A stretch of 64,000 nt of DNA from a phage. A program made the translations under genes and the position numbers. The stretch lies in the NCBI GenBank assembly GCA_024672315.1, contig GCA_024672315.1_4714.1; one strand, written 5' to 3'. Shown one piece after another: positions 1,208-53,426 of this stretch (positions are counted from its first letter, which is position 1; every line of letters starts with the position of its first letter). Under the pieces are notes generated by a model. The model searched no databases, was not told the origin of the DNA, and saw only the letters and a program-made list of their open reading frames with translations.

Positions 1208-1240
1208 AGGTAATATAACCCTGAAATTTTTTTCAATATT
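1208..1240 (-). promoter_or_regulatory. Early-promoter-like motif copy 1 (minus-strand reading TATTGAAAAAAATTTCAGGGTTATATTACCTA)
   Basis: One of three near-identical ~33-nt elements (A-tract plus TATATTAC), about 70 nt upstream of the leftward gene start at 1137. Confidence 0.5.
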
Positions 1241-1391
1241 GGTGTAACCGCATTGAACGATATAAACCCCTAGGCGAACGCTGCCGAGAAGCAACATTCT
1301 TTCTACATATAATCAGGATATGTCTGTAAACTTTTACTTCTCTTATTGAGAGTAATGTCATATCCGTTTACCATCTTCTTACGGAGTTCGT

Positions 1392-2486
1392 ATGTTTCGT
1401 GTTTTAAATAACCTCCCGCGAACATCATCGGGTGTGCAACCCGTCCCTCAGAAAGACTATCTAATACGCGAAGTTCAAAGAAACCTACAGACAATCCAGA
1501 ACCACTATCAAGGTTTTACCTTCGCGGTTCAGAGCGATCACATCCTTGCGTTGCTGCTCGCACAGCTCCCTATGAGATACGACATCTCAGTACAAACTTA
1601 CTACGACATGATTCTCGATCTTACCCCAGAATTGGGTAATCGTGTCAAGTTGACAACATCAAGATACGCGGGTAAGTTATTCGACGGTGCTTTCTATCCG
1701 GGATTGCACGAAGCTATTATTGCAACCGGTGAAAGTCGTCTTATTTCACGTGACGTTCTTGATAACTGGCGTAATTGGTCACCAGTTAGAATCGTGACGC
1801 ATCCATACGCAAATCTTCGTTACATTCCTCTTCACCGAAAGCAGATTGAAGAAGGACGAGGTTTTGCGGTTATTATGGTTGATGTGCCTTTATTAGCGCT
1901 ACAGTATCGAATGTGGTCTTTGGTCATGGGTCATAACGACGACGGTAAATGGGTGGTTAAAGAACCGGTTACAAGCTTCCTTGCGAGTTTTCCGTTGGTT
2001 AACGCATTATACTCACACAACGATGTTGTTATACGCAATCGTTGTTTATGGATATCTCCGGCTAAGAATCCACTCAAATCACCAATTTACGTTAACGACC
2101 TTGATAACGTATTCAGCCAAGTCGTTCTGTCCGTACAGCATCATTTATTACGAAGAAGACGAAGCTACACCGACATGCTTAAACAGATACCGAGTTTATA
2201 CGGAGATCAGTACCAAGCAACCCGAATGGGCTACACCGTCGATCTTCGACAAACACGATGGGCAAGGGATCTGGGTTGTCTGTCATTATGGCAACAACTC
2301 GTCACATTGCAAAACGTATCTGAAAGCGTCGGGTTCAGCAGTCAAATCGATAATGACCTGTATCGTGCTGCCGACCGAAGTCTAAAAGAAGGTAACTGGG
2401 AGTCCTCTCCGTTACCTGGCGATTTAAGACGTGAAGTTATTGCACAGGTTGCCGACCTCTTAAAAATTCTTCCTGCTGGTGCATAA
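1392..2486 (+). CDS. Hypothetical protein (364 aa)
   Basis: Long ORF with ATG start preceded by a purine-rich RBS-like sequence (ACGGAG); no recognisable motifs. Confidence 0.6.
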   Translation: MFRVLNNLPRTSSGVQPVPQKDYLIREVQRNLQTIQNHYQGFTFAVQSDHILALLLAQLPMRYDISVQTYYDMILDLTPELGNRVKLTTSRYAGKLFDGAFYPGLHEAIIATGESRLISRDVLDNWRNWSPVRIVTHPYANLRYIPLHRKQIEEGRGFAVIMVDVPLLALQYRMWSLVMGHNDDGKWVVKEPVTSFLASFPLVNALYSHNDVVIRNRCLWISPAKNPLKSPIYVNDLDNVFSQVVLSVQHHLLRRRRSYTDMLKQIPSLYGDQYQATRMGYTVDLRQTRWARDLGCLSLWQQLVTLQNVSESVGFSSQIDNDLYRAADRSLKEGNWESSPLPGDLRREVIAQVADLLKILPAGA

Positions 2487-2489
2487 TCA

Positions 2490-2535
2490 CCTCCCTCTTC
2501 CCTTGCATCCTCCCAACCCGTAAGGGAAGGGAGGA
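2490..2535. terminator. Imperfect pyrimidine/purine-arm hairpin between convergent genes (candidate bidirectional terminator)
   Basis: CCTCCCTCTTCCCTT ... AAGGGAAGGGAGG inverted repeat between the + gene ending at 2486 and the - gene ending at 2553. Confidence 0.4.
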
Positions 2536-2552
2536 TGGGGTGGTGGATTATG

Positions 2553-14705: not shown

Positions 14706-15289
14706 GGGACATAAACCTCCATCAACATCGCATAAAGCGCACCAAGCCCATGCAGGACTTGGTTAGGTGCAAAGGTCGGTGTGTAACATACTTGTTCGGT
14801 TGGTGCTTGTTGACGTAAGTCTAGCGGATCCCCGTTAATAAGCATCTGCAGGAGATCGGCGTCATCTTGCAATGTGTCTTCATCGATGTATGCGTCAACA
14901 CAAAGCAGTCGGTGTAACTGTTCTGGTTTAATTGAAATACCGACAACCATGCAGTTGTTGTAAGTGGCGTTGTCCAGAAAGAAGTGAATGACACCCGCCT
15001 GAGGATCGCCACCGTAGTGGAGCCAACGCGTAAAGCCAGCCGACATCATCCATAGCGGGTTGTGTTGTAACGCACTGACGACGCGGGTCTCGAATTCCAA
15101 ACCAAACTTCTGGAAGATCGCACCCATCTGGAAACGATCTTCATCGAGACGGTAGCGGAATATACAAGCATCCGATCCCGTTGAGTTGTCGTACACCGAA
15201 AGATACCCACGATGGATTTCCACGGTAACATTGTTGTCGTCAAGCGTAGCGCTCGCAACGCCGTTAGAAAAGGTTGGAACAAAGCTCAT
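14690..15289 (-). CDS. Hypothetical protein (199 aa)
   Basis: ORF. Confidence 0.55.
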   Translation of the reverse strand: MSFVPTFSNGVASATLDDNNVTVEIHRGYLSVYDNSTGSDACIFRYRLDEDRFQMGAIFQKFGLEFETRVVSALQHNPLWMMSAGFTRWLHYGGDPQAGVIHFFLDNATYNNCMVVGISIKPEQLHRLLCVDAYIDEDTLQDDADLLQMLINGDPLDLRQQAPTEQVCYTPTFAPNQVLHGLGALYAMLMEVYVPCFKN

Positions 15290-15837
15290 CTTGTAATCCT
15301 TAATTTACCTGAATGAATTATTGTTGACGGGTCCACGACGCGACCGTATTTCGCATTACGTAATACACGATGTCCAAAGAAGTCGGCGGTTTCCAAAACA
15401 ACCGTGTAACAACCCAGCTGATGTTGATGTCCCCAAAACCGTTCAATGGGAATCCAGCAGGGCGACATGCCTTTGTGTCGCCAATCCGTAACACAACCGA
15501 ATTCAGCAAACTGTTCAGTAAACCACTCGTCAATGTCGGTATCCGTAAAGAGAAATACGTGGTTTTTAACCAGATAAGCGAACCCAGGATAAAAAAGCTG
15601 AGGGTCATCCGGGTCACGTAGATAAACACGAAGTTTGTCTAGCGTACCCTCGACAACGATTGTATCGGGTAATCCTGGCGGCGTGAACCGAAGTTGGAAG
15701 TTATCCTCGTTTGCCGAGGCGTTAACCAAATACCCCAGTTGAAGGGGTCGATGCAGTTCGAAAAGGTTAAACGTTAATGCATATTCGATATACTCTAATC
15801 CTATATTCATGTCTGACCTATGTGGTATGGACGGCAT
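15286..15837 (-). CDS. Hypothetical protein (183 aa; start could be ATG at 15810)
   Basis: ORF; a GHQHQ histidine motif is noted but not assigned to a family. Confidence 0.55.
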   Translation of the reverse strand: MPSIPHRSDMNIGLEYIEYALTFNLFELHRPLQLGYLVNASANEDNFQLRFTPPGLPDTIVVEGTLDKLRVYLRDPDDPQLFYPGFAYLVKNHVFLFTDTDIDEWFTEQFAEFGCVTDWRHKGMSPCWIPIERFWGHQHQLGCYTVVLETADFFGHRVLRNAKYGRVVDPSTIIHSGKLRITR

Positions 15838-15942
15838 TGCATTGCCTTCCGCGAGTGTAATCAGGAAGGTAATGTAGGTTTATTTTAATCTCCATTTCGC
15901 GATGATATGACAGTCTTTATTACGTTTACCATCTGAGGGAGC

Positions 15943-30167: not shown

Positions 30168-30201
30168 TAGGTAATATAGACCTCAACTTTTTTCCAATAA
30201 T
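30168..30201 (-). promoter_or_regulatory. Early-promoter-like motif copy 2 (minus-strand reading TATTGGAAAAAAGTTGAGGTCTATATTACCTA)
   Basis: Near-identical to copies 1 and 3; about 125 nt upstream of the leftward gene start at 30047. Confidence 0.5.
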
Positions 30202-30983
30202 GCCGCAACGTTCCGTGCGAAGCGAATCACCTTGTAATTGCGGGTCTGTTTGATATCTTCTTCCCCATCACTGTCACCTTCAGACGGATCTTCCCACATG
30301 AAGTCTTGTTCGTCCGCTTTCTGTAAGTAGCGGTATAACTGCACCATGCTGCGTGCGGTCGGAGAGATAGCGCGAAGCTCATCCAATTCTTCATCCGTCA
30401 ACAGAACGTGCGATGAACGCAGCGGCTCCATTGTCGTATTACACAACAGACGAATCAGCAGATCGACGCACGGAATAACAGAACCTGGTGCGGCGATTTC
30501 TGGGTGTAACGTATAACCCCAATATACGGTGTTAAAATACGTCAAAACAGCAGGTAGTGACGGATGTTCCATCGCACGACCAATTTGTTGTCTTACGATA
30601 GATGCACGATCGTTCAATACATCGAAAGTAATCTGCTGCGGTTCCATAACCGCAAGTGAAATACCGTATGCGTCAGCCACGCCCAGGATTTCATGAAGGG
30701 CCGAACGTTCTTCTTCGGCGGATATTGTCCCGATTGCTTTACGCCCTGCAAGGTCAATCAGCATCGGTGAAACAGCTTCTTTAACCGCATTAAAAGAAGC
30801 CTGGTAAGCGTGTTTGTGAATATACAATGTCCACGCTAATGCGCGTTCAGCCGCATGAAGCAGATCGACATAAGACAGTTCTTGATGGCATGGGCCATAC
30901 ACGCTCACAGCAAGCTTGGTGGCTTTCTCAGAGGCTTGCATAATAACATCCGGTGATTTAGGCATATCGCGTTCTTCTTGCAT
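30183..30983 (-). CDS. Hypothetical protein (266 aa)
   Basis: ORF; its 3' end overlaps motif copy 2. Confidence 0.6.
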   Translation of the reverse strand: MQEERDMPKSPDVIMQASEKATKLAVSVYGPCHQELSYVDLLHAAERALAWTLYIHKHAYQASFNAVKEAVSPMLIDLAGRKAIGTISAEEERSALHEILGVADAYGISLAVMEPQQITFDVLNDRASIVRQQIGRAMEHPSLPAVLTYFNTVYWGYTLHPEIAAPGSVIPCVDLLIRLLCNTTMEPLRSSHVLLTDEELDELRAISPTARSMVQLYRYLQKADEQDFMWEDPSEGDSDGEEDIKQTRNYKVIRFARNVAALLEKS

Positions 30984-31244: not shown

Positions 31245-31274
31245 CAATATAACGTAACGTATTTTTTTACCAAT
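31245..31274 (-). promoter_or_regulatory. Degenerate fourth copy of the early-promoter-like motif
   Basis: CAATATA-N8-ATTTTTTTACCAAT matches the A-tract and spacing of copies 1-3 but reads TATATTGT instead of TATATTAC; it overlaps the 3' end of gene 31267-32076. Confidence 0.3.
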
Positions 31275-32887: not shown

Positions 32888-33598
32888 TCACCCCCTCAGA
32901 ATCGCTTCTGTTTCGCTGATCGTATCCGCAGGATAAACCAAACTACTATCGATTGCGTTATTCACGTAACCACCCATTAAGTTGGTGATGGTGTTTGTAC
33001 CACTATCGATAATGTTTCGTAATCCGATGTCGATGGCTTTTAACGTACTGCGTTCCTCATCCGAAAGCAGACGCCACGCTCGACGACGATCGTTGGGGTC
33101 GCGTGTGGTGATAGAAGCCAGAACAGAATAGATGCTGCTGTCTGCGTTCAATTTAACGCCAGCCAATTTCGCTGACGTGTAGAGCAGCTGATATTTTTCT
33201 TTCTCAGTGTACCACCATGGCACTTTACCGAGCGTATAGATCTCGTTATACATCAGCCATGGGAAAGAGTTTCGCATCACGACATCGGTCGACACCAACA
33301 CCGTGTCGCCGGGAAGAAACACAAATTCATAAAACGGCTGACCATCCATGGTAATCTCACGGATGTCAGACGGGTCGATATGGAGCTGGGTCAATGCGTG
33401 GCTGACACCATACTGTCCATCAGGAAGAATAATCGGGCAGCACGCACAAACCCGGTTCTCACTCCCGATGATAGATAAACCCAATCCCTCGTAACGGACG
33501 GGTGTCAGAATCGAACACCCGCCACGAGTAACAACAGATTTATCTTCTTGTATGTCCCAGTCCGCAAGCACCGCAGCACCGTTGCGGACAAGCGCCAT
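32888..33598 (-). CDS. Hypothetical protein (236 aa)
   Basis: ORF in the same operon. Confidence 0.6.
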   Translation of the reverse strand: MALVRNGAAVLADWDIQEDKSVVTRGGCSILTPVRYEGLGLSIIGSENRVCACCPIILPDGQYGVSHALTQLHIDPSDIREITMDGQPFYEFVFLPGDTVLVSTDVVMRNSFPWLMYNEIYTLGKVPWWYTEKEKYQLLYTSAKLAGVKLNADSSIYSVLASITTRDPNDRRRAWRLLSDEERSTLKAIDIGLRNIIDSGTNTITNLMGGYVNNAIDSSLVYPADTISETEAILRG

Positions 33599-35456: not shown

Positions 35457-38400
35457 TTATTTAGCGTCGTTAAAGTAAATATCAACAGCTCGTTCCGTTG
35501 CGTAGAGGAGACCAAGATTCACAGTCCCAACCACTTCCGGTGAACCGATGATACGGTTAGCGATACTGGTGCCACTGAAGATAGCATCAAGGGTGTGCCC
35601 GTCTTCGGTTTTGTTCACACCATGACCCACGGAAGAGACAACGGATTTCGCTTGTGCTGCGAAGGTACCTTTATCACCCATCCCCGCACCAAGGTCGTAA
35701 CGCATGAAAATACGGATAGCGATCTGGTTCTCGCCTAACGGATTACCGTCTATTCTCACGTTACTGTTATTGATACGCCCTGTTGTTGCCTCGCTGAGTT
35801 TCAGTTCCTTGACGCGTTTAGCTCGCGCTTTATCCGCTTCACCGACGAGCGCCGCCATGGTTTCGCTCATATCCTCAATCTGAGCGCGGTACAGTACATC
35901 GATCTGTACAACTTCACCATGAACATCAGCACGTGGGTTATACTGACTCATACGACGTAATGCTTCAACGGCTTCCTGACTCTCATCACTCAGATCAGTT
36001 GCGATCGGTTCTTCCAGTGTTGCAAGAATCGTTCGCGGTTCAACGTGGTCGCCGATTTTCACAAGACCACGAATGTTGAGATGGGCGTCAACGATAAGCG
36101 TACGGCTCTTAATCGATGGTGTTACGAGACGATCAGCAAGATTGTCGAAGATATACGAACTGTCCTCGTGAGTCTCTGGAATATCCAGAATACCGACAAG
36201 AGACAGAACACCTGCGCGCCAAACAACCTGACCCGGGTTCCACCAATCGCGTTTAAAATAAAGACGATGGAAAACCACCACATCCTGATCCTTAACGCGA
36301 TCCCCGACTTTATAATCGGTAATGAGATCATGGGGATAATACTTACCTGGTCCTTTCCCGATTATCGTACCGAGCTGGAAAACCTCTTCCCCTAACTCTG
36401 GATCGTCGTATTGTATCGTAAGCGCGGTTTTGGTGACCTTCTTCACAACACCATCGCCTTGGGCAGCTGCTGCGAAGAGCTTACCAACACGATGCGCGAT
36501 GACAGTCTCACCACCTGTACGCCACGGTTGTACATCGTAACCTTCAGCAGCAATCATGCGGTTGTGTTGGATCCCGACAAAGACCAGACGTTTTCCATCG
36601 TCGCGGTCTACAGCCGGAACAGCTAACGCTGACGTACTCATTACCGATGAAATGCCGTCTGTCTTTTCATCGAATGGTCGTGTTTCACCATATACCGACA
36701 CGATATTAGCATTAGGTGCGAGGTAAGCAGAAATACCTACGTCCCCGCTATCTTTCGTACCCTCTGACACAATACCAACATCGGACTTGTCGTATTCACG
36801 ATCGCGTGCGCGTCGAAGCGATGTCTTTGAACGACCTCCGATACCGGTCATCGTCGCTTCTTCACCCTGCTTGATATCCAACATCGGGTTGGTTTCATCA
36901 ATCACGATGGAAGCACTGTCGTCGAGAATCTGGTTCCAGACACTTACCGGACTGATTGATATTTTCTGGCGATTTCCTTGACTGCTGTTCTCATTCTGAC
37001 GAATAGCACCAACCAGGTCCTTATACACCAATTCAGCGAACTTATCGTACGTTTTAAAACGTTGGTAGTTCACATCGTTCGTGTTAGGAGCCCAATCATC
37101 CAGAAGCAGTTCAACAGCACGCAGTAACAACATGGCGAAATCGGTAGGTTCTCCCATGTTCTGTAGCAACGTACGGCTTACCGGATCAACGAAAAGACGC
37201 TCCATGAGTTCAAGTTCGCGTAAATGACGAACCTTAAGTCCAGCACCATCGACAACGTTAAAATAGATATCTCGATTGTCAAAAGCGCCGCGAGCGTAAC
37301 CGATGTAGTTACGGTATTCGTTAAACCCACCCAGCAACAACGTCGTCATGCGATCGTCTTTACTGAAGATCAAACTTTCGTCATCAAAGCTCACCGCGAA
37401 TTCATCGGGTGCTAGACCCATACGAGAACCGCGAGGTACCGTACGATAGTTCGCTTTAAGATGTTCTAATAACGGGGTAAGTCCACCCAGATAACTTAGA
37501 ACAACACCGACCGGAATACGTACACCCATGAATTCAAGATCGGCGGCTTCGATCGGCATCTTAGCCGCATTGATACCGAAGAAATCAGGGAACGTCCCTA
37601 CAGGTGTTGGTGTTTGTCCTGACTGACAGATATAGAGCTGATTGCGTTTATCGATTGCTAAGAATTCACCCAGCGTGTTACGCGCAAACGTCAGGAGCCC
37701 TTCGGCTAACTGTTCGTTGAACCGATCTTCCCCGATGAACTCCGGCAATGTCTTTGTATCGAGACGTATATCCCAATCAGCAAATTGGATTTGGGTATAG
37801 TTGCGTGCAAGCACAGCGAAGTAATACGGAACTTTGACGGCCGGATCAAAGACGTTACCGCGTTTCAACGTGGTTAAGGGTGAGGATTTATCGTAATACA
37901 TCGCCGTAAGTTGACGTGTTAGCCAACGACCGGCGTTATTAACGACGCGCTCTGAACGTTTAACAAACACCTTACCGTAGGCGGTACTCAACGCAACTTC
38001 AGATGACGATACCTTTCTAATAGGTTTATCAACACGTTGTTTACGCATCCGGTATTTGATGCCGTTAACGACATAAATGCCATCCTTACGAACCTTCGGC
38101 AACATCACCGGGAACGTGGTCGGGACACCGCCTACGGGAGCCAGTTTAATCGTGATGACTTGATAATCCCCCATCACGTCAACAACATCTTCGACTTTAT
38201 ATCCCGTAACAGGGTAACCCGCCTGCTGTACCGCAACAACAGCGGCTGCGATGTCCTTTTGCATTACGTGTTCAACGTAATGTTTATCCCACACCGCAAG
38301 CGTCGATTTACACAGGCTCTTATCGACGATAACATCCGCTTCCGGCATAACCTTTGCAGGAGCTAATTTCGCGGCTTTTGGTTTAACTTCAACATACTCG

Positions 38401-39803
38401 GCAAGTGTTAATCCAGAACCGTCGGGTGCTTCGATTTCATGGATGGCGTCAGCATTACGCATCGCTGCTTTATATTGGACACCGCTTAACTGACCTGCAT
38501 CGGCCAGATCGCTCGCGCGCACCAACACCGCATCCGATAACGACTGAATATACTCACCGTGTGTTTTTGGTAACGTTGTCGCGTCAAAGACATCAACCTT
38601 TTCTTCTTCGGTATCGTCGGTAACGACTTCGAAGAGATCGTCGGTAATGTCCTGATCTTCATCAGGTTGGAAATCCGGTTGTACTTCTACCCCAGGTACT
38701 TCACGGACATCTTCGAACGAGCGTTCTACAATGGCGTTCCACGCATCAGCGTCATCGTCTTCATCCGACCCGCCGACCAACTCAGCTTCTAACTCATCGG
38801 GATCAAGAACGGTAGCCAGATCCTCACCGTTAGGAAGCACGACGTCGCGATCATCGTACTCCGCATCCGGGCTGTCCGCAAGAATATCTCGCTCCTGACG
38901 AAGAACCTGTTCCTCTTCTTGTTTCTGTTCTTCTTCATTCGCGCTCTGCGACCACAGACGTGTTACCGCCATCATCCAACGACGTTGGAAGGTTTCAAGT
39001 GTCGTTTTATCGAGTTCTTCCCCTTCCTTTACAAGTCCGGTACGCCATTCTTCCAGCAGGCCGAGATTCAGCGTAAAGAAGTACACGCCGTCTGTGAATA
39101 CAACGTTAAGCTTGTCCAGCGTGGCTCTGTCTAACGAAGCCATCGTGCTGTTCTCACGATCGGTTCCCAGCCAGCGGAAGAAGTCAAAGAACGACAGCTC
39201 CTCCGGTGTGGCGAAATTCATGAGGTTGTTACGGGTCGGTGCCTGTTGCGTGGTACGCATCAACGAAATCTTCGGCAATGTTGACGGTATACGGAACAAC
39301 AAAAAGTGTTGGCGATCGCTTTGCTGTGCGATTTCGTTGGCTTTCGACCAAATTGTTTTACGTACATTGAACCATTCATCATACCAACGGGTGAGCGTTG
39401 GACGATAAATGTACATGTGGTTAAGATGCGCGTAGTTAGCAACGATCTGAGCGTTGATGTTTTTCTCCACCGTGCTTAGATCGGTAACCAAACGAAAACG
39501 ACGATGTGATGCACGATAATCCAATTTCGCTCGTGGGAGTTGGAATCGTTGATCGCGTCGAGGTGCACCCTGTTTGGTTGCGAGATCATCAGCAAACGAA
39601 ATCCATAGTTGAGCATTTTCTTTACTCAGCATGTATTCGTTTTCTGGAGGACCTATCAATGAAGGATCCGTTGCGATGTAATGATAGACAGCATAACGCG
39701 GCAGCTGCAATAGCTGCACTAAACGTAATCTTGGTGATAGTAACTCTTGGTAGCGTCTGACACCAAACTGTCGGTAGTAATCAAGGTATTTAAGTTTTGC
39801 CAT
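35457..39803 (-). CDS. Multisubunit RNA polymerase beta-like subunit (N-terminal part of beta; 1448 aa)
   Basis: TGIGGRS..RRARDREYD..VGIVSEGTKDSGDVGISAYLAPNA aligns with E. coli RpoB [40 protein letters not shown]; downstream AVPAV and GDKG segments align with beta NMQRQAVP and GDKxAGRHGNKG. No GEME region, so the beta C-terminal part is presumably encoded elsewhere. ATG at 39803 preceded by GGAG and an in-frame stop 2 codons upstream. Confidence 0.8.
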   Translation of the reverse strand: MAKLKYLDYYRQFGVRRYQELLSPRLRLVQLLQLPRYAVYHYIATDPSLIGPPENEYMLSKENAQLWISFADDLATKQGAPRRDQRFQLPRAKLDYRASHRRFRLVTDLSTVEKNINAQIVANYAHLNHMYIYRPTLTRWYDEWFNVRKTIWSKANEIAQQSDRQHFLLFRIPSTLPKISLMRTTQQAPTRNNLMNFATPEELSFFDFFRWLGTDRENSTMASLDRATLDKLNVVFTDGVYFFTLNLGLLEEWRTGLVKEGEELDKTTLETFQRRWMMAVTRLWSQSANEEEQKQEEEQVLRQERDILADSPDAEYDDRDVVLPNGEDLATVLDPDELEAELVGGSDEDDDADAWNAIVERSFEDVREVPGVEVQPDFQPDEDQDITDDLFEVVTDDTEEEKVDVFDATTLPKTHGEYIQSLSDAVLVRASDLADAGQLSGVQYKAAMRNADAIHEIEAPDGSGLTLAEYVEVKPKAAKLAPAKVMPEADVIVDKSLCKSTLAVWDKHYVEHVMQKDIAAAVVAVQQAGYPVTGYKVEDVVDVMGDYQVITIKLAPVGGVPTTFPVMLPKVRKDGIYVVNGIKYRMRKQRVDKPIRKVSSSEVALSTAYGKVFVKRSERVVNNAGRWLTRQLTAMYYDKSSPLTTLKRGNVFDPAVKVPYYFAVLARNYTQIQFADWDIRLDTKTLPEFIGEDRFNEQLAEGLLTFARNTLGEFLAIDKRNQLYICQSGQTPTPVGTFPDFFGINAAKMPIEAADLEFMGVRIPVGVVLSYLGGLTPLLEHLKANYRTVPRGSRMGLAPDEFAVSFDDESLIFSKDDRMTTLLLGGFNEYRNYIGYARGAFDNRDIYFNVVDGAGLKVRHLRELELMERLFVDPVSRTLLQNMGEPTDFAMLLLRAVELLLDDWAPNTNDVNYQRFKTYDKFAELVYKDLVGAIRQNENSSQGNRQKISISPVSVWNQILDDSASIVIDETNPMLDIKQGEEATMTGIGGRSKTSLRRARDREYDKSDVGIVSEGTKDSGDVGISAYLAPNANIVSVYGETRPFDEKTDGISSVMSTSALAVPAVDRDDGKRLVFVGIQHNRMIAAEGYDVQPWRTGGETVIAHRVGKLFAAAAQGDGVVKKVTKTALTIQYDDPELGEEVFQLGTIIGKGPGKYYPHDLITDYKVGDRVKDQDVVVFHRLYFKRDWWNPGQVVWRAGVLSLVGILDIPETHEDSSYIFDNLADRLVTPSIKSRTLIVDAHLNIRGLVKIGDHVEPRTILATLEEPIATDLSDESQEAVEALRRMSQYNPRADVHGEVVQIDVLYRAQIEDMSETMAALVGEADKARAKRVKELKLSEATTGRINNSNVRIDGNPLGENQIAIRIFMRYDLGAGMGDKGTFAAQAKSVVSSVGHGVNKTEDGHTLDAIFSGTSIANRIIGSPEVVGTVNLGLLYATERAVDIYFNDAK

Positions 39804-39986: not shown

Positions 39987-40505
39987 CCTTGTCTTCGCCT
40001 CAGGTCGCTACGCTGAGACCGCCTGCGTGGATACGTACATCACAGGCTGCTTGCACTTTCATGCAAGAGGAGACTATATCAAACCGTCAGCTTCACCTGC
40101 TACGGTAACCTACACTTCGAAGACGCTTGTCCTCTACAGGGTGGTAAATCCCTTAGTCGTTGAACCTGCGTTGTTTCACATTCTTGTTTGCAAGAATGCC
40201 GTATTGCTACGCAACAACCAGGCTGCTGATTGCCCATTATCACGCACCTTAGCACCGCTTACGCGGCTTTTCTTTCAGCCTAAGCCTCCGTGGGAGGTAG
40301 TGCATCTCAACTGTTGTTTCCGCCTTTCGGCACCTCATGGGTTGTTGAGCTTTAGGGGTTCCCAGCAATTCGTAGGTTTTTCAAGCACTCCCTTTCGGGA
40401 ATACCGGACCAATTCAGTTAGTAAACAACATTATTACCATCCCTCATTCTTAAGGGTTAATTTTTTAAAATGATAAAATTAATGTGTTTTTGGGCTAACT
40501 CGAAG
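39987..40505 (-). other. Group I self-splicing intron (about 519 nt) within the RNAP beta-prime gene
   Basis: On the minus strand in canonical order: P-like AATTGCTGGGAAC (plus 40358-40370), Q-like AATCAGCAGCC (40221-40231), R-like GTTCAACGACTAAGG (40151-40165) and S-like GATATAGTC (40072-40080); exon 1 ends in U, the intron ends in G; no long ORF on the intron coding strand. Confidence 0.75.
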
Positions 40506-41972
40506 ATCACCGCCTAAACCGGCGAGGTATGGCGCAGGAACAATAGTCGTTTCTACGAACGAAGCATTAGGTAACCAGTCGGGGTATTCCCATGCGATAA
40601 ATCGTTCATCCGTTATTGGTTCCCAGTTACTATCCAGTTCGGTTTTCGGTTTTGCAGCGACGGTTGTACGCGCGTAACAGGTTAACGGGATAACGGATTG
40701 CATACCCGATACCGGATAACGTGTTACCATCGCAGCCAGGTTATTCCAGTACTTATATCCGGCGATATAGATAAGCTCGGTGTAAGTAATGGGGTGAACA
40801 TCCGCACCAGGTTTATTCAACATCTCTGGGGGTAATTCACTCATACCACGGAATAACCGAAACGAATCGTTGTTCACATAGACGAGGCAAAGATAACGTC
40901 CATTAACCATGATAGGCTCGTTACGCACACCAGGATCGCTTAAGGTGTTCAATAAACGTTCTATTCCGTCCCATGTTGTAAAGTCATCGATGGTATCTGG
41001 GTCTAACGTGACACGTTCACGTTCCATCGTTTCGATATCGATAAGTTCAACTTCTGTAACATCACGGACAAATATTTCCTGCAAAATCCCCGTACGTAGC
41101 GCATGTTGCGTTACAGGGAGAGCAGCTTTACTCATCTGGTATAACCCTAACTGAACCGCGGTACAGGAAGGCTGGTTAGGCGACCCTAATACCTCCGTTG
41201 TGGGGTTAATTGCCGAAATAACGTTACGGGTTGAGTTCCAAACGCGACGTGAGCCGAACTTACCTTGGAAGATCCCTTTCTTACCCTGGAACATATCCAA
41301 CAGTAAAGCGTAGATATCGTTAAATGTTCTCTGTAAGCTCCAACGTTGACCGTCGTAAACGGGATCAGAATAATCTTTTAATCCATCAGGGACGGTGTTA
41401 GAAATTGCAAGGAAACGACGATACAACTCCGTGATTTCTTGCTCGCTTTCATACCCACCTTCTTTTACTTCTATTTCACGTAAGCCTGCAGGCAATACCA
41501 GTAAGTGACGGGTCATCGCTTTGAACATGTTCTCTTCGACAACTTTAATTCGTAGCTCTCGTTGAGCTGAACCCGTTGAAACGAACTTGATATCAGCGAC
41601 GTGTTGTGCAAAGAACCCGTATCCTGTTTGTCCTGTTAATGCATCAGACGCAACGAAGTCGCGTTGTTCAGGATCCCAACGAGCATACGCCTTTCCCGAC
41701 ATGATATCACCATAGAGGTGTTTTAGTCGAATGAGGCGGTCGTAAATGACGGGATGCAGGATTTCAACTTTGCATTCAATCACCGCAAATCGACGGTCTC
41801 GATCTTCACTACCTGCGCTACCAAAGATGGTGTAAGAATAGAAACCATCATCGTGGAAATTACCGGTGCTTGGGTCACGAATGCTCATGCTCGTGATCTT
41901 GGGGAGAAAACGTAACTGCTGTTTATCGAGGTGTAAAATGCTAATGTTAAACGGCTCTCTGACTTTAGCCAT
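40506..41972 (-). CDS. RNA polymerase beta-prime-like subunit N-terminal part, exon 1
   Basis: AVIECKVEILHPVIY (compare GHIELAAPVAH), LLVLPAGLREIEV..EITELYRRFLAISN (compare VLPVLPPDLRPL..DLNDLYRRVINRNN) and FQGKKGIFQGKFGSRRVWNSTRNVIS (compare [23 protein letters not shown]); ATG at 41972 preceded by AAGAGGAG. The unspliced frame runs 8 codons into the intron to a stop at 40479. Confidence 0.8.
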
Positions 41973-42217
41973 GGAGACACTCCTCTTTACCACCACCGGC
42001 TGCGGCGGTATCATCTGAACACACGAGAGACGTAATGGGTGATGGCGTCACCCATCGCTTCCTTGCCTGATGCCAGGAAGTTATTAGGTTACGTACCGGC
42101 TTGATAAAATCAAGCAGGCGATGTGTGAAGTTACGCTTCAACATTATCAATGCCGAAGGTAAGCTTCGTGCATCACGTTCCAACGTAACATGGGAACGTA
42201 TCGAACTGGAGGTATAC

Positions 42218-45200: not shown

Positions 45201-48200
45201 TCTACAAACAGCTTGACAAGACGCCCGACGTTTACGTCAAGGGAGAATCAACGCCTCGTCTGTTGTCCATGGTGTTAGCAGCGGGTGGGTATTTCCGTCG
45301 GTCGGATGGACAAGTCATCAAAAATCTTGAAGACATCGATGGTGATGTTGTTGATGCACAAGGTAACGTCGTACTTACGCTTGCCGACATGCAGAAAGGA
45401 CTTGTCGATAAATACGGTAAAGCGATTCGTCGCTTAAAAGAAAAGCTCATCAACTTCGGTGTAAAAGCTTTTACGTTACCGTTAACGCTGCTACGTAAGA
45501 CAAAGGACATCCTTAAAGCCCTTCCAGGTAAAGCCGTTAACGGTCTACGACGGATGGGATTAAACTTCCAATCACCTGACGCATTACTGGTGGGAACAAC
45601 GTCGAGTATGGTAGATCGTCTCGATGCGATTTACCAGCTTCTTGACCAGCGTATGCCGGGTGGTGATAAGGATTACCGCGATTGGAATGGCGATGGTGTT
45701 CGAGAAGGATCGCTGGAAGACCTAAAACGTAAGCGTGAAGCCAAGGAAAACGGTAAGGACGACACCGGCAAAGATTCCAATAAAGGGGAAGAAAAGGAGA
45801 AGAAACGAGGATTACTCGGAAGCCTTTTCGATATGCTCGGCGATACCGCATTAGGCAAACGACTCATGGCGAGTCCGCTTGGAAAAATTCTAGGTGGTCT
45901 TGGGGCGGTGTTAAGCGGCGGTGCATCGTTAACCGGGTTGTTGGGCAAGGGTCTCATTAGTGGAACCGGCGCGCTGGTCAAGGGGGGACTAAGTGCGGCA
46001 GGATGGTTAGGACGTGGTGCGTTAATGGCGGGTGGGGCCGCGTTGAACGCCGTTGGTGGGTTATCGGGATTAGGTGCATTCCTTATCTCACCTGTTGGGC
46101 TTGCTATCGCTGGCGGTGCATTGGCTGCTTATGCTGGATGGAAGATCTATCAGCATTTCGCTGAGAAGCCTGACCCGATGCAGAAACTCCGTCTTATTGC
46201 ATACGGTGCAAAAGGGGACGATAAAGACTTCAATAAGAAGCTGCTTGCGACAGAAACATACCTCACCGATCACGTGGTTATGACCGGGGATACCATCGGA
46301 TTCGATCCGAAAGCGGATTCTGAAAAGATTCTCGAAATCTGGGAATTGTCCCTGGAAGATTCCGACCGAATGAACGAATGGAAACGCTGGTATCTGCATC
46401 GTTTTATTCCTGTTTTCGCTCGTGCGTACAAACTCTGGAAAGAGCATATGCCGGACGAGAAGAAATACATGGAAATGGATAAATATCCGAACGGTGAGAA
46501 CAAAGTGAAATGGTCGGAAGCGTTTATCTGGCCTTCCGATAGTCCTGACGGTCCGTATTACGTCGAAGCTAACCCGTTGGGTTCTTCTGGTGCGACGCGT
46601 TATATTGCTGGTCAAGACGTCAAAACCTTGATGCTGAAACAACTCGAAGCCATCAAGAAAGAGTACCAGAATCAGATTAAGCAATACACTCATGATGAGG
46701 CTATTGCTGATTGGTCACGGATGTCTGACACGCAACGTAAATCCGTTGCGCCTAACGCATTACGCGGTCAGAAAGCGTCGTTACGTTTTAACGATAAACG
46801 TTACAACAGTGCTGGCGCTAAAGGACGACAGAAGCTTGACGCAACCGCGGTTATTGAAAGCGTAGACCGTCGTGGTAGAAAATGGGTTGCCGGTGGATAC
46901 ATCGATGAACTCACCAGTCTCCGTGTTCGTGCGTACGGTATCAAGGTTCCGTTGTTAAGTCAGATAAAAGTGCTGATGGAACTCGAAGACGCTGTAGAAC
47001 CTGGCGTAGTCGCTGAAGGTAAAGGTGTTAAATACGGTGGCGATCTTGTTGCGCTCTACAAGAAATTCGCGACGAAGTTCGGAAGAGACGTTAACAGCAA
47101 GCGGGATCAGGATATCTGGTTCGCTTGGATGAATAACCGTTTCCTGCCCGTCTTTTTAACCTATTACCAACAAGTTAGCGACATGGGCGGTCAAGGACTT
47201 CTGTCCGACGTGGTACAGAACCTGAAAGACAGCCAACGCTGGGAAATCGGTGAAGCACTTGTCGCAACGCAATACCGTGATGAGAAAGGTACACTGCAGC
47301 CTGTATGGTCCTGGAATAGTTGTGGTTTCTCCGGTACTGAAGCTAACACCACCAGCAGTTCAACAAAGAGCCAGCTCGATCTGTTAAAAGAATATGCGGA
47401 TAAAGAGAAGGTTCGTGAGAAGAACGCGGAAGCATCGCAAGAGGATGCCGATAAATTATCGAAGATCCAAGAGCTGATGATGAAGCAGGCTGGGTACGAG
47501 AAGAAAGACGGTGTCTGGCAGAAGAAATCACGCATTACCGGCGGGATGAGTAACGCCGAAGCGAATTACAACCCCAATGGGAATAGGGTAGGTGCAAGCA
47601 GCTTTACTGCTTCGGCTACTTCCAGTGCTGGGTTGGGGTCAACCGGCGATCTTACTGGATTGCCTAACATGGGCTTACAGAAACCTGCAATGGGACCAGG
47701 TCCTGAAGCTGGACGTCGTGCGCTTGTTAAATCCGCTGTAAAACGCGGCATTACCGATCCAATGGAAATGGCGATGTTCCTCGCGAACATCGAACATGAA
47801 TCAGGGAACTACACTCACGTACGTGAGGGGAACTATAAGACACCAGAGCGTCTTAAACAGGTCTTCCCTTACAAATTCCGTGATGTACAGGATGCCGCAC
47901 AGACGATCAGCATGGGGCCGGAAGCGGTATTCGAACGTGTGTATGGTAATCGTAAAGATCTCGGGAACACACAGAAAGGGGACGGGGCGAAGTATTTAGG
48001 ACGTGGCTTCATTCAGGTTACCGGTAAAGCTAACTACGCTCGTCTGTCCAAGACCTTGAATAAGGATCTTGTCAGCGATCCGACATACCTGGAAACGCCG
48101 GAAGGTGCGGCGGAAGGTAGTGTCGCATGGTGGCTCAACCGAGGTAACGTGTTACGCGATCCCGCAAAACGGGGTGATGTACGCCAAGTTCGTTATCTGG

Positions 48201-48932: not shown

Positions 48933-51074
48933 ATGGGTATTCTTGTTCAAAACGCCCTAATAACCAAACAAGCGTTTTTATTACCTGGCGATAGCAGCAC
49001 GCTTAGTGCTGACATGATTAAAGCGAGACATACACCGTATTCCTACGATAACGTCGATGATACCACCTTAGGTGGGAACTGGGTGCTTAACCCGCCACCG
49101 CAATATACCAAATTTGCCGACATCAAAGAACGCCGACGTGCGGTTATGCCGGGATCAACGGGCATGGGCCGAGGCTATAGTGAAAGCATTAACAGCTTTA
49201 AAGAAGTCGTTACCTTACGATTCGGTAAACCTCGCTTTACAGGCGCAAGTATCTTCTTTACCGATTTCTACGACGCCGATGTTGCCGTAACGGTTAAAAC
49301 CGGTCGCGATCCCGGTATTCTTTATTACGCAGCCAAAGCGTATACCACCGTTCTTTCTTACCTCACACCGCTACCTTACCTGTATATGGTTGGACGTATC
49401 GGTCGATATTTCCTGGGTAAGCCTACCAGTCAATATTACTATCAAGTACCAACCATGCACGTGTATTGGGCGTCTTTCCAGACGCTGGTAAACCAAACAG
49501 CGATAAACATGGGTCTTATCGCCGGTGCCGGTAAAGATAAAGGCTACGTGGAAGAAGGGGGTACCGTACTCCATCAATATTCAATCGGTGGTCAGAACGT
49601 TGAAGAATTCATCAACTACGCCTCTAAGACGCTACCGGGGATTTATAAGAAAGGTGGTGGGATCGATATCTACCAGATTGCAACACGTCGTCAGCGTATA
49701 CAAAACGCATGGGTACGTCGTATTCAATCCATGATGGAAAACGATTACTCGTCTTACGAGGAGTTCTGGAACGATCTTGATAAACGACTTGATAGCGGAG
49801 CATTTCCATCGGATGTAACCGGTCGTACGTTAACGCAGTATCTCGCCGACACACAGAAGTCTGCTGTTTACAGTGCGACAGCTGGTGATAATAAACAAAC
49901 GATGGACGACCTTTTATTCGGAAGGGCCTCATACACCAACAAGGATGCTGATGCTAACTTCAATGTCTCAGCGGCTACCTCCGACGGCGGTACGTCAACA
50001 CAGAGTCAGGGTACAACAGCCAATGTCGGTAATTCAACATCGGGGACAACGCAGGCTTCAACAGCAGCATCCACGGCTGGAGGCGCGAACGTACAGAGCA
50101 AAGGAATCGGACAAACGAATGCAGCCGAAGAAGCTACGTTTCTTGATCTGATGGACGCTGAATTGGCCGACGGTGCTCAGTTCATCAGTTTTCGAGTCGA
50201 TTCTGTCACCAGTGTAACCGAAACGTTTTCAAACAGTGCTTCAGAAAGTTCAATCGCACAGACGATGAACAGCCGTGCACAAGCGAACATCGAACGTCGT
50301 TTCACCCTCTCCGGCGGTAATACAGGTTGGGCTGTACTGGACGAAGCCATCAAAGCCGGTTCCGACCTCGTTAATGGCGCTATTTCCGGGATGGGTTTGG
50401 ATGGTATTTTTGGTGCCTTCATGGGTTCCGGCTTCGCTGACATTCCGAAATTCTATTCTGGGTCTTCGGTAAGTCTACCGCGTGCGGATCTGACGATGGA
50501 ATTGCGTTCCTGGAGTGGGGATCGTTGGTCGATCTTTACGAACCTCATGGTACCTCTTTTAGCGATCCTTGCAGGTGGTTTACCTCAGGCTACCGGTAAA
50601 TCGTCCTACGGGATGCCATTCATGTGTGAGTGTTATATTCCCGGTAAAGTCCAGATTAAAATGGGTCTTATCGATAACATCACTGTGACGCGTCATGTTG
50701 GGAACGTACCATCAACGCGTGAGCGATTACCGTTGGGTATCGATGTCAGCTTCAGTGTTTATGACCTGTCGTCCATCGTCGCCATGCCGATCACAACGAC
50801 AGCCGCATCGATCGCAAAACTGGATCCTCGTGGCTTCTTAAGTGATCTTCTTGCTGATGATACCCCACTCAACAACTATCTTGCTGTATTATCGGCATTG
50901 ACACTTACGGAACAAGTTTACATGATTCCTGATTTAAGTCGTCGTATGCATAAAACCATGGCCGATATCGATAGTTTCTGGAGCAAAGGTAATTTTGCTA
51001 GCTGGTTATCTGACACCATGCCAGGCAGGATAGCATCAGGGCTGTTATGGAAACGTACAGAACGACCGTTCTGA
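48933..51074 (+). CDS. Hypothetical protein, probable virion protein (713 aa)
   Basis: Long ORF immediately downstream of the giant gene; contains a Ser/Thr/Gly-rich low-complexity region. Confidence 0.7.
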   Translation: MGILVQNALITKQAFLLPGDSSTLSADMIKARHTPYSYDNVDDTTLGGNWVLNPPPQYTKFADIKERRRAVMPGSTGMGRGYSESINSFKEVVTLRFGKPRFTGASIFFTDFYDADVAVTVKTGRDPGILYYAAKAYTTVLSYLTPLPYLYMVGRIGRYFLGKPTSQYYYQVPTMHVYWASFQTLVNQTAINMGLIAGAGKDKGYVEEGGTVLHQYSIGGQNVEEFINYASKTLPGIYKKGGGIDIYQIATRRQRIQNAWVRRIQSMMENDYSSYEEFWNDLDKRLDSGAFPSDVTGRTLTQYLADTQKSAVYSATAGDNKQTMDDLLFGRASYTNKDADANFNVSAATSDGGTSTQSQGTTANVGNSTSGTTQASTAASTAGGANVQSKGIGQTNAAEEATFLDLMDAELADGAQFISFRVDSVTSVTETFSNSASESSIAQTMNSRAQANIERRFTLSGGNTGWAVLDEAIKAGSDLVNGAISGMGLDGIFGAFMGSGFADIPKFYSGSSVSLPRADLTMELRSWSGDRWSIFTNLMVPLLAILAGGLPQATGKSSYGMPFMCECYIPGKVQIKMGLIDNITVTRHVGNVPSTRERLPLGIDVSFSVYDLSSIVAMPITTTAASIAKLDPRGFLSDLLADDTPLNNYLAVLSALTLTEQVYMIPDLSRRMHKTMADIDSFWSKGNFASWLSDTMPGRIASGLLWKRTERPF

Positions 51075-51130: not shown

Positions 51131-52198
51131 TTAACCTAACGTCACTGTCGGTAAATCAGGATAAAGTTTCTTCAATCCCGCCATCGTGGTGGTAGTCGTA
51201 TAATTCTTACCCATCACAGCAAGAGATGCGTATTTCCTACTGCGGGAGAAAAGGGAATAAAACCCACTGGATGTTTCCATCCACATCGTGAGGAGTTCTG
51301 CATCCTTACCGTGATAGTTCGTTTTACCCCATCCGGGTTTAAACGCATCGGCAAAATCAATTAAACGCGAGGCTTCAGCGTCGTATTCTTTAAGGGTAAG
51401 GTACGATGGGATACGGTAGTTACGGAACAGTAACGTAATGAGTTCAGGGACAACGCTACGGGCACGTTCAGCCGTAATGAGTTCGGTGATAACAGCAGCT
51501 GTACGGAAATCGCCGTTAAGACCAACGCTGCTTAACGATTCCGCTAAAGTGGTCGCCATCGCCACTTTATCCTCCGCTGACCCAGAGTCATACAGACTAC
51601 GTACATCGATATAGTTGCCTGCTAATGCGGCTTGACGAATCAACGACGTGACAACCGTCCGGTTCGTCTTATAGTCGTTGTAGCTGAATTCGGTTCGCGT
51701 TTTCCCTTGATCCTCGAGATACCGATCAACAATCGTCGACAGTTTATAATACTCATCGCCAGACATCAGACTATCGAGAAGCTTAACATTTCCATCTTTA
51801 TCGATAAGCTTCCCTAACGCACCATTGGATTGCTGGTTAATGGTGCTGTAAATCTGGTCTTTTACTTGCGATAGGATGTTATCGGTTGACGATATATTCA
51901 GGCCAGTAACATCTTTGATCTTATTCATCAACGCGTTTTCATTCAGGGAGATTTTGCCTCCGCTGATATCGATGAAAGAATTAAGATCGCTTATGGAAAT
52001 CAGGTTTCCTGTTAACGCCGATAATGTACTATTGATACTGTTCGTAATACTGCTACGAAAACTGGTTAACGCATCCGCCGCTGAAACAGCGGTACCGCTA
52101 ACCGCTTTAAGGAGCGTATCACGCCCTGTCGAAAAATCGCTGGTGATGGTTTTGATCTTGGACGTATCTATACTCGGCAGTTTGTCGTAAAGACTCAT
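51131..52198 (-). CDS. Hypothetical protein (356 aa; start re-assigned to MSLYDK)
   Basis: ATG at 52198 preceded by CAGGAGGACGTG (strong RBS); the track start at 52249 lies inside the hairpin/TATGCCG element. Confidence 0.6.
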   Translation of the reverse strand: MSLYDKLPSIDTSKIKTITSDFSTGRDTLLKAVSGTAVSAADALTSFRSSITNSINSTLSALTGNLISISDLNSFIDISGGKISLNENALMNKIKDVTGLNISSTDNILSQVKDQIYSTINQQSNGALGKLIDKDGNVKLLDSLMSGDEYYKLSTIVDRYLEDQGKTRTEFSYNDYKTNRTVVTSLIRQAALAGNYIDVRSLYDSGSAEDKVAMATTLAESLSSVGLNGDFRTAAVITELITAERARSVVPELITLLFRNYRIPSYLTLKEYDAEASRLIDFADAFKPGWGKTNYHGKDAELLTMWMETSSGFYSLFSRSRKYASLAVMGKNYTTTTTMAGLKKLYPDLPTVTLG

Positions 52199-52227
52199 CA
52201 CGTCCTCCTGAAAAAGAAAAAAGAAAT

Positions 52228-52264
52228 ACGGCATAAAGCCTACCCACACAATGGTGGGTAGGCT
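52228..52264 (-). promoter_or_regulatory. Perfect 10-bp hairpin plus TTTATGCCGTATTTC element
   Basis: AGCCTACCCA-cacaa-TGGGTAGGCT followed on the coding strand by TTTATGCCGT, about 30 nt upstream of the ATG at 52198. Confidence 0.5.
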
Positions 52265-52280
52265 AAGATCAACATCGATG

Positions 52281-52793
52281 TTAAACTTCTTCGTTTTCTG
52301 AACCTAGTGATTCAGCATCTGGATCGTCAACAGGAATGGTTGCGTCAAAATACCGTTTCGTATGCGTGGTTGTATATCCTACGCTATCTGTGATGGAAAT
52401 CGTAAACGTGACTTCTCTTGCACGGATTAAGCGTAGTTTATTCATGAAGTTACGGAACGGCATCGATCCCCGATTCAACTCCTTAATGACGTTTCCCCGA
52501 ATACTGGAAATGTCTTTATTCGTTTTATCAGGATGTCGTTTCTTCACATCACGCATATGTCGGGTAATATACGAATTGAGCTGATTTGCGCCGATCCCTC
52601 TCTCCGTATAAATCTGCAACAGGAACTCCGTAAGGAAATCCTGTCTACCCGTAGGCGTCCAGAAATTGTTACCGTGATTGTAGTTAGTCGCTCGTCCTCG
52701 ATTGCTTTGAGGATTTTCATCATCGCTTTCGTCACGACGCTTAAGCGGATTAATGCGCGCGCGAAAAGAGACTTCATTATATTTATTTGTCAT
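52281..52793 (-). CDS. Hypothetical protein (start re-assigned to MTNKYNEV)
   Basis: The track start at 52838 is a TTG codon; the first ATG is at 52793 and overlaps the upstream stop. Confidence 0.5.
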   Translation of the reverse strand: MTNKYNEVSFRARINPLKRRDESDDENPQSNRGRATNYNHGNNFWTPTGRQDFLTEFLLQIYTERGIGANQLNSYITRHMRDVKKRHPDKTNKDISSIRGNVIKELNRGSMPFRNFMNKLRLIRAREVTFTISITDSVGYTTTHTKRYFDATIPVDDPDAESLGSENEEV

Positions 52794-53305
52794 AATACAC
52801 CAGTGTACTGACTGAGTGCGAAGGTTAGGAGTTCGCAACAGTCTCTCGCTAGTTTCCTTGTTTTGCGTAATCCATAAGCCGCATCCAAATCGTCACGTTC
52901 CGCCAGCGCGTCTAACCACGTCGCAAGTATGCGTCCATACTCGATAACGTCACGCATGAGAACGTCGAACTGGATAACACGACCATCGGCATCAGCAAGC
53001 CAACGATTGAATGTGATTTGTGGTGCTAGTATTGCATATGTTCTCTCCTCTAATGCTATTATGTTTATGTTGCCTTCGTTATCGAACGCTTGATGCCAAC
53101 GGCGAAGGTCAAGCATCAACGACTCAGCGTCCATATACCACAACGGTAAATACGTTTTACGTGCAACGCGTATATCGTAGATGTTGTGAACCCAGGACGT
53201 TGTTTTGTAAAGCAACAAGAGTTCGTTTAACCGTTGCCTATCATCTTGAAACGTCTTCCTTTTATAACGTTGGAACGCACGCCTCAAGAAAAAGCGATGT
53301 AACAT
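52790..53305 (-). CDS. Hypothetical protein (171 aa)
   Basis: ATG at 53305; first gene downstream of early-promoter-like motif copy 3. Confidence 0.6.
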   Translation of the reverse strand: MLHRFFLRRAFQRYKRKTFQDDRQRLNELLLLYKTTSWVHNIYDIRVARKTYLPLWYMDAESLMLDLRRWHQAFDNEGNINIIALEERTYAILAPQITFNRWLADADGRVIQFDVLMRDVIEYGRILATWLDALAERDDLDAAYGLRKTRKLARDCCELLTFALSQYTGVL

Positions 53306-53394
53306 GGCATCACCTATGTATCATTCTTGCAGGCATCAATGAAGCCATCACAAGAAGGTAACGTTATACGTCGCCTTCATGACTGTCATCATGA

Positions 53395-53426
53395 AGGTAA
53401 TATAGTCCTGTTATTTTTTTCAATAC
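53395..53426 (-). promoter_or_regulatory. Early-promoter-like motif copy 3 (minus-strand reading TATTGAAAAAAATAACAGGACTATATTACCTT)
   Basis: Near-identical to copies 1 and 2; about 95 nt upstream of the leftward gene start at 53305, in a divergent intergenic region. Confidence 0.5.

Follow-up and report, generated by a model that had tools for sequence, protein, structure and literature searches.

What reads the three short, near-identical elements that lie on the minus strand of a 64,000-nucleotide (nt) stretch of phage DNA (GenBank assembly GCA_024672315.1, contig GCA_024672315.1_4714.1; the whole stretch is hereafter called the window)? An earlier note, made from the letters alone, had suggested that these elements could be early promoters of a phage related to phiKZ. 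We observed a shared motif, its non-random placement, its conservation, the equivalence of one element to the early promoter of phiKZ gene 54 and, in the same DNA, genes for a virion RNA polymerase (vRNAP). The suggestion was supported by the match to the published early-promoter consensus, by the placement of the elements, by the vRNAP genes and by the gene 54 equivalence, and we estimate at roughly 85% the probability that we are dealing with phage-specific early promoters, belonging to a Goslar-like chimallivirus and read by the vRNAP.

The pattern TTGRAAAAA-N10-TATATTACCT matched the minus strand of the window three times without mismatches (1208-1236, 30169-30197 and 53395-53423), whereas no match was obtained in 100 dinucleotide-preserving shuffles even when one mismatch was tolerated. 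The three near-identical minus-strand copies were thus confirmed, essentially at the positions given before. Copy 1 (1201-1241, minus strand) reads CAATATTGAAAAAAATTTCAGGGTTATATTACCTAGGTGAA, with the core TATATTAC at 1217-1210, and precedes the gene of the nuclear shell protein chimallin (chmA); copy 2 (30162-30202, minus strand) reads CATTATTGGAAAAAAGTTGAGGTCTATATTACCTAACTGAT, with the core at 30178-30171, and copy 3 (53388-53428, minus strand) reads CCGTATTGAAAAAAATAACAGGACTATATTACCTTCATGAT, with the core at 53404-53397. The exact TATATTAC is present in all three, and the window copies represent a variant that has TATTGRAAAAAA as the -30 box and CAGG or GAGG in the -20 box. In copies 1, 2 and 3 the core's last C was 73, 124 and 92 nt, respectively, away from the ATG of the next gene, in agreement with the 70-125 nt noted earlier. 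The upstream end of copy 2 overlaps the stop codon of the open reading frame (ORF) 30183-30983, and copy 3 sits in a 133-nt gap between the divergent genes 52790-53305 (minus strand) and 53439-54068 (plus strand). When each copy was left out of the motif in turn, it scored 35.8, 21.5 and 25.2 bits (copies 1, 2 and 3). The short sequence TATATTACC alone occurs four times in the window against 0.44 occurrences expected; its fourth exact occurrence (52563-52571, minus strand) lies within the coding region of a gene similar to Goslar gp201, has no flanking boxes and was rejected as a chance match. No site resembling an intrinsic terminator (GC-rich stem-loop followed by a T-run) overlapped the three elements, and an Rfam scan of the whole window gave no match at any of them.

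The identity of the phage could be established by comparison with known genomes. The first 12 kb of the window are 97.9% identical to Escherichia phage vB_EcoM_Goslar (Goslarvirus, Chimalliviridae), a nucleus-forming jumbo phage, and the identity over the whole window is 94-97%. The window corresponds to the right-hand 64 kb of Goslar (171763-237291), with window positions 2-40096, 40087-40410 and 40505-64000 aligned to Goslar 171763-211863, 211903-212226 and 213797-237291, respectively. Judged by its sequence, the source phage is a Goslar-like chimallivirus, an Escherichia coli jumbo phage closely related to Goslar. We used the complete annotated Goslar genome (NC_048170) for naming the genes and for a genome-wide test of the motif. 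The minus strand is the main coding strand of Goslar (216 of the 247 genes), and intergenic DNA makes up 7.1% of its genome.

The motif model, 27 nt long, was built by extending the three copies on the basis of sequence only, and the sites were selected blind to the annotation. In Goslar this model found twelve sites scoring 30-41 bits, the next best reaching 13 bits, and the peak scores in 30 shuffled genomes were 7-19 bits. The genome contains ten occurrences of TATATTAC, all on the minus strand, eight of which are embedded in a much longer common motif; the occurrences at 1608 and 225862 are located in coding sequence, lack the upstream boxes and were discarded as chance matches. Four more sites, carrying TACATTAC, were added by the model. 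The core TAYATTACYTNNNTG is found at 13 Goslar sites, and every one of them is on the minus strand and co-oriented with the downstream gene; twelve are intergenic and the thirteenth is within a hypothetical ORF of 62 codons. The sites stand at the heads of gene runs, upstream of co-oriented genes, and the binomial probability of this placement is <1e-10. The last C of the core is followed after 32-212 nt (32-124 nt in ten cases) by the next annotated start codon in the same orientation. All 13 sites contain TAYATTAC, the A-tract or TTAAT box and the TTTCAsG box keep a fixed register relative to the core, and the Goslar consensus is cntTAaTncAAaanaTTTCACGnCTAtATTACcTangTGAta. The genome-wide motif search that the earlier note had proposed as a check, when run on Goslar, therefore came out in favour of its suggestion, with 13 sites that are all co-oriented and 12 of which are intergenic.

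The elements are also conserved. An alignment of the window with Goslar and with two Goslar-like genomes from metagenomes had no variable position in the 120 columns of the elements, as opposed to 43 variable ones in the 861 flanking columns. Copy 2 was invariant in the four genomes while its flanks varied at 23 of 287 columns, and copies 1 and 3 were likewise invariant. Such invariance between variable flanks is, at the level of aligned sequence, a sign of purifying selection.

The motif can be compared with the early promoters described in other jumbo phages. The early consensus of phiKZ is TATATTAC, that of 201phi2-1 is TTAWTAVAA_HYWTTTRARR_BTATATTACDWHDGTG, and that of OBP ends with AWWWWWTTTYARRYAKATATTATYWWADTG, OBP and N1M2 having close variants (PMC7058600). 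The statement in the earlier note that phiKZ early promoters carry an AT-rich TATATTAC was correct according to this published consensus. According to a review, an AT-rich motif centred near -10 is found upstream of early operons in every jumbo phage encoding its own RNA polymerase (RNAP), and wherever tested, this motif has been an early promoter read by the virion enzyme (PMC7598289). In phiKZ and 201phi2-1 the conservation of the early promoters covers the -10, -20 and -30 regions (PMC11512511). In the literature searched, which included papers on Goslar itself, we found no published description of an early-promoter motif in Goslar.

The closest parallel to copy 1 was revealed when chimallin loci from 14 named phages were compared. 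Upstream of gene 54 of phiKZ, which encodes chimallin, lies ATGAAAAAAATTTGAGATTTATATTAC, and the last C of its core is 73 nt from the ATG, as in copy 1. The phiKZ element ATGAAAAAAATTTGAGATTTATATTAC and the window element TTGAAAAAAATTTCAGGGTTATATTAC share the TATATTAC core, the A7 tract, the TTTsAG box, the spacing and the gene that is driven. In phiKZ, differential RNA sequencing has associated the primary transcription start of PHIKZ054 with the early motif and a secondary start with a middle-type motif (PMC8244752). By this comparison, copy 1 is equivalent in position and architecture to P054, the early promoter of phiKZ gene 54. Elements like it also stand in front of the chimallin gene in at least eight further phage lineages (PhiPA3, RAY, Proteus phage 10, RSL2, Eowyn, Noxifer, Phabio, D6 and pEa_SNUABM_37) and in two metagenomic contigs, the chimallins of which are 21-29% identical to that of Goslar. 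In an alignment of nine chimallin elements TA.ATTAC was invariant, together with TG five bases later. The chimallin proteins of the compared phages share only 19-23% identity. The near-identity of the promoter in front of proteins that are only about 20-25% identical implies that recognition by vRNAP strongly constrains the DNA.

The motif is not confined to named phages. Exact-pattern scans of 2.9 million viral contigs retrieved 35 stretches of the form TTTCASG...TAYATTACYTNNNTGA, largely from contigs of 180-317 kb but also from several contigs of 23-48 kb, and 17 stretches of the A-tract form, which were from contigs of 180-317 kb except for two short AT-rich ones. Most of the matches in both scans were a short way upstream of an ORF. 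Each pattern carries by a rough estimate about 37 bits, so that about one chance match would be expected in this collection.

The polymerase that would read such promoters is encoded largely by the window itself. The vRNAP of Goslar consists of gp78, gp196, gp205, gp207 and gp210, all detected in virions by mass spectrometry, and the genes of four of these five subunits are in the window on the minus strand: a gp210-like gene at 32888-33598 (recognised from the ORF and the Goslar annotation) and, named from the Goslar annotation, a gp207-like gene of 1448 amino acids at 35457-39803, a gp205-like gene at 40479-42014 and a gp196-like gene at 55466-56140. During Goslar infection, GFP-tagged gp196 colocalises with the injected DNA and travels into the early-infection vesicle, chmA transcripts are present by 5 min post infection, and they are still made in infections arrested at the vesicle stage, where vRNAP resides (bioRxiv 10.1101/2023.09.20.558163). 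Among the genes behind copies 1-3, the published support for immediate-early transcription covers chmA only.

A group I intron (Rfam RF00028, 63.6 bits; 40050-40434, minus strand) was detected between the gp207-like and gp205-like genes, i.e. between two vRNAP beta-like gene pieces, and it was the only hit of the Rfam scan in the window. At window positions 40410-40505 about 1.48 kb of Goslar sequence is missing, and in Goslar this segment holds gp206, an intron-adjoining ORF similar to phiKZ ORF179; the phage studied here thus appears to carry the intron without the gp206 ORF. No tRNA genes were found in the window.

Taken together with the phiKZ and 201phi2-1 data, these observations suggest the following course of events. 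The multisubunit vRNAP would travel inside the capsid and enter the early-infection vesicle together with the injected DNA; there it would recognise a three-part signal comprising an A-rich or TTAAT-type box at about -30, TTTCAsG at about -20 and TAYATTAC at about -14 to -7. Initiation would take place approximately 7 nt downstream of the core, at the conserved TG(A). The predicted starts (±3 nt) are all G and fall at window positions 1203, 30164 and 53390 (Goslar 172964, 201930 and 226681), with a weaker candidate at 15862, and the predicted leaders of copies 1, 2 and 3 would be 66, 117 and 85 nt long. We placed +1 at this position because the published box is centred at about -10, because an invariant TG is present there and because stem-loops in three Goslar leaders begin at or next to that G. 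Since jumbo-phage RNAPs have no sigma homologues, a co-injected factor may assist the vRNAP. Copy 1 would thereby transcribe chimallin, the shell protein required before the phage nucleus is built, and copies 2 and 3 would each stand at the start of a short leftward operon with no assigned function (gp214-216-like and gp200-202-like, respectively). For these two copies we infer early timing, as we infer vRNAP dependence and the exact start sites for all three.

Three of the Goslar early leaders (49697-49718, 86668-86691 and 166043-166055) open with a stem-loop of 6-8 bp, e.g. GATAACAGcggttaCTGTTATC, and the first base of the stem-loop is at the predicted +1 G or within one base of it. Such structures fit both the start site proposed above and a 5' hairpin with a stabilising role. 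A different structure was seen at copy 3, where a 9-bp inverted repeat, CCTTCATGA-N6-TCATGAAGG (53373-53396, minus strand), directly follows the TATATTAC core and overlaps the predicted start. It was not found at the other copies and is not strictly conserved among the Goslar-like genomes, one of which has an A-to-G change in the 3' arm that would keep a G-U pair in the RNA.

Several points weigh against reading the elements as early vRNAP promoters. The start sites were placed by extrapolation, with phiKZ and 201phi2-1 as the models. According to the legend of Extended Data Fig. 4 for Goslar, the first nucleotide displayed is 91 nt upstream of the chmA ATG, which corresponds to a position within the A-tract, 25 nt upstream of the predicted +1; that position rests on ordinary RNA sequencing coverage, not on 5'-end mapping, and is ambiguous. 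Refinement of the motif model and scoring of the sites both used the Goslar genome. Moreover, 13 sites are few in comparison to the 28-32 in phiKZ and to the 175 Goslar genes detected at 5 min, which implies either extensive read-through or further promoters without a recognisable motif. Finally, gp214, the product of the gene behind copy 2, is plentiful in virion preparations, as would not be expected of a purely early gene.

The abundance of gp214 (bioRxiv 10.64898/2026.04.21.720040) could also be taken as a sign that the elements are not strictly early vRNAP promoters but are read at middle or late times by the non-virion RNAP (nvRNAP), or by both polymerases. The secondary start of phiKZ gene 54 at a middle-type motif, next to its early primary start (PMC8244752), fits this possibility, as does the codon bias of the genes after copies 1 and 2, which is comparable to that of the major capsid protein gene and suggests sustained high expression. 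However, the known nvRNAP signals are different, the late one being TATG at the start and the middle one TACT at about -22 after an A-rich stretch (PMC7598289, PMC8244752), and by inspection neither was present in a conserved register in the three elements, which instead fit the early consensus across about 35 nt. Because the nvRNAP signals differ from the elements, we consider transcription by nvRNAP through them unlikely; additional internal promoters may be present in the leaders and would be a separate element. It is more improbable still that the elements are not promoters at all but a conserved motif of the transcribed leader or a DNA site bound by a protein involved in genome organisation, packaging or replication. 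The variable distance between element and start codon (32-212 nt) could be cited for this, but such variation is typical of promoters and atypical of translation signals. Furthermore, every site points the same way as the gene downstream of it and stands at the head of a gene run, the corresponding elements of phiKZ coincide with mapped primary transcription starts (PMC7598289, PMC8244752), and the consensus early promoter of phiKZ has been used in a transposon donor for early expression of acrVIA1.

The elements also bear some likeness to strong sigma-70 promoters of the host, which E. coli RNAP might use at the onset of infection: the three window copies have an AT-rich, hexamer-like box near -10 (TATATT, similar to TATAAT, or TATTAC) and upstream of it a TTGAAA that resembles the -35 hexamer TTGACA. 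The spacer between the two is 13-15 nt instead of the required 16-18 nt, the last base of the -10 box is wrong (sigma-70 boxes have A at position 2 and T at position 6), and a sigma-70 consensus scan called none of the three elements on the minus strand. In addition, nine of the 13 Goslar sites lack TTGAAA and yet keep the TTTCACG and TAYATTAC boxes, the motif is also used by phages of four other host genera (Pseudomonas, Erwinia, Ralstonia and Proteus), infection by phiKZ-type phages has been reported to be insensitive to rifampicin, and the injected DNA is located in the vesicle together with vRNAP (bioRxiv 10.1101/2023.09.20.558163). Recognition by the host enzyme is thus very hard to reconcile with the data, and the early vRNAP promoter remains the reading that we favour.

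The degenerate fourth copy that had been proposed at 31245-31274 did not withstand scoring with the 27-nt model: its best score was -17.9 bits, compared to 30-41 bits for true sites. It has the core TATATTGT, a spacer longer by 1 nt and no YTNNNTG tail, and was rejected as a copy. Unlike the true copies, which are invariant, it has a spacer that differs between the window and Goslar at several positions; it might be a decayed copy at best. A better candidate for a fourth, weaker promoter, as judged from the letters, may be the minus-strand site at 15860-15886 (core match 15862-15876), which reads TACATTACCTTCCTG and has an intact -10/start region, CTACATTACCTTCCTGAT. This is the only additional match to TAYATTACYTNNNTG in the window and likewise in the Goslar genome. 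It is intergenic and co-oriented, lacks the -20 and -30 boxes, and its full 27-nt score of 11 bits is at noise level. The start predicted at 15862 is a G located 25 nt upstream of the first ATG of the ORF 15286-15837 (minus strand), a gp225-like gene.

The first gene after copy 1 is the 5' part of the chimallin gene (chmA, Goslar gp246; 1-1137, minus strand), which is cut by the window edge and lies in the first 12 kb, where the DNA identity to Goslar is about 98%. Copy 2 is followed by a gp214-like gene (29568-30047, minus strand), encoding a protein of 159 amino acids whose only family match, PHROG 9746, is of unknown function; more than 200 copies of gp214 have been reported per Goslar virion preparation (bioRxiv 10.64898/2026.04.21.720040). 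Behind copy 3 is a gp200-like gene (52790-53305, minus strand) for a 171-amino-acid protein of unknown function that had no match in a PHROG search, followed on the same strand by 52281-52838 and 51131-52249. The claim that the genes 1-1137 and 29568-30047 have the strongest codon bias in the window holds: as measured on the Goslar orthologues, gp214 ranks first and chimallin second among the 58 genes of the window region, and they are third and fifth, respectively, among all 247 Goslar genes. Within the window region the ranks were the same whether codon bias was expressed as the frequency of E. coli-optimal codons or as the effective number of codons. Comparable bias elsewhere was found only in the major capsid protein, the inner-body protein gp58 and gp23.

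Between copy 1 and the chimallin start codon, the leader contains a perfect spacer-less palindrome of 12 nt, AATGACGTCATT (1168-1179), centred about 36 nt upstream of the ATG. Perfect spacer-less palindromes, 12-18 nt long and with their centres 31-46 nt ahead of the chimallin ATG, were seen in 12 of 15 chimallivirus lineages; they represent at least seven unrelated sequences in which the dyad symmetry and the position are kept: AATGACGTCATT in the window, TTCTTGATCAAGAA in phiKZ, ACATTAGCTAATGT in RAY and Proteus phage 10, ACACACTCGAGTGTGT in FLC9, and further TGTTCGCGCGAACA, CAATCGCGATTG and GCTTTGCAAAGC. Depending on the locus, only 0-3.6% of natural 80-nt windows hold a palindrome of equal length. 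Within the TTGATCAA group the outer positions show compensatory changes (TTC..GAA, TAC..GTA and TTAAC..GTTAA). Among the 13 Goslar early leaders only that of chimallin has this palindrome. Similar palindromes occur 30-33 nt upstream of other very highly expressed genes, namely the Goslar major capsid protein gene, gp58 and the tail sheath gene of phiKZ; palindromes of this kind are at Goslar 45685-45696, 65117-65132 and 142859-142870 and at about 47237-47250 of the phiKZ stretch examined. The one at gp58, CACATTAGCTAATGTG, includes the chimallin-leader palindrome of RAY and Proteus phage 10, and the chimallin 12-mer AATGACGTCATT itself has a second Goslar occurrence at 142859, against about 0.01 expected by chance. 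Often such palindromes are followed by a conserved (C/T)GTAAAGGA ribosome-binding context.

It is possible, although we hold it as a tentative idea at best, that copy 1 is one half of a deeply conserved chimallin expression cassette made up of an early promoter and a palindrome-bearing leader. The palindrome, of which we found no published description in the literature searched, could be a regulatory element not described before, e.g. an operator for a dimeric phage protein. Alternatively, it might form a hairpin at the 5' end of a second, middle or late transcript, or belong to the missing specificity determinant of nvRNAP promoters, in which sequences downstream of the start matter yet show no consensus (PMC12809450). 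The model late promoter of phiKZ, p119L, has no palindrome, and thus the palindrome is not a universal feature of nvRNAP late promoters. A separate case is the identical 12-nt palindrome TCCTACGTAGGA, found 13 nt upstream of the start codons of Goslar gp55 (60909-60920) and of the phiKZ major capsid protein gp120 (18250-18261 of the phiKZ stretch examined). By pairing the Shine-Dalgarno AGGA with TCCT, it might mask the ribosome-binding site.

Among nucleus-forming jumbo phages Goslar serves as the E. coli model, and the set of 13 early promoters provides testable boundaries of transcription units for it. The set predicts which genes would be read first by the injected polymerase in the early-infection vesicle, chimallin, gp214 and gp200 being among them. 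The elements might also serve as portable early promoters in engineering, in the way the phiKZ consensus early promoter was built into a transposon donor so that acrVIA1 would be expressed early. These results leave the current view of how chimalliviruses are transcribed unchanged and extend it by one genus.

In comparison to known systems, the Goslar consensus aligns with that of 201phi2-1 over the whole length, box for box and in the same register, the downstream (G)TG included; differences in detail are C instead of R in the -20 box and TAYATTAC where OBP has ATATTAT. The promoter AWWWWWTTTCARRYAKATATTATYWAAGTG of OBP and N1M2, which is a bioinformatic prediction only, has the same three boxes as that of Goslar. 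The early set of phiKZ comprises 28-32 sites with TATATTAC and upstream T/A-rich boxes, whereas Goslar has 13 recognisable sites, most of which carry TTAATCCAACA instead of the A-tract, a tighter TTTCACGGC box and a strongly conserved YTNNNTGA tail; the A-tract class consists of the sites of chmA, gp214, gp200 and gp40. The hosts are different as well, E. coli for the Goslar-like phage and Pseudomonas for phiKZ, but both genomes encode a multisubunit virion RNAP. Phages AR9 and PBS2 follow the same strategy, with an injected multisubunit vRNAP reading an AT-rich box near -10, but they have a different consensus, a uracil-containing genome and a Bacillus host and are not chimalliviruses. Coliphage N4 also injects a virion RNAP that transcribes early genes from phage-specific promoters in E. 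coli, its enzyme being a giant single-subunit polymerase, unlike the multisubunit vRNAP of Goslar. The early promoters of N4 are DNA hairpins, whereas no hairpin is present in the three window elements. The class of promoters described here is thus already known from phiKZ-type phages, and the Goslar motif extends this class to one more genus.

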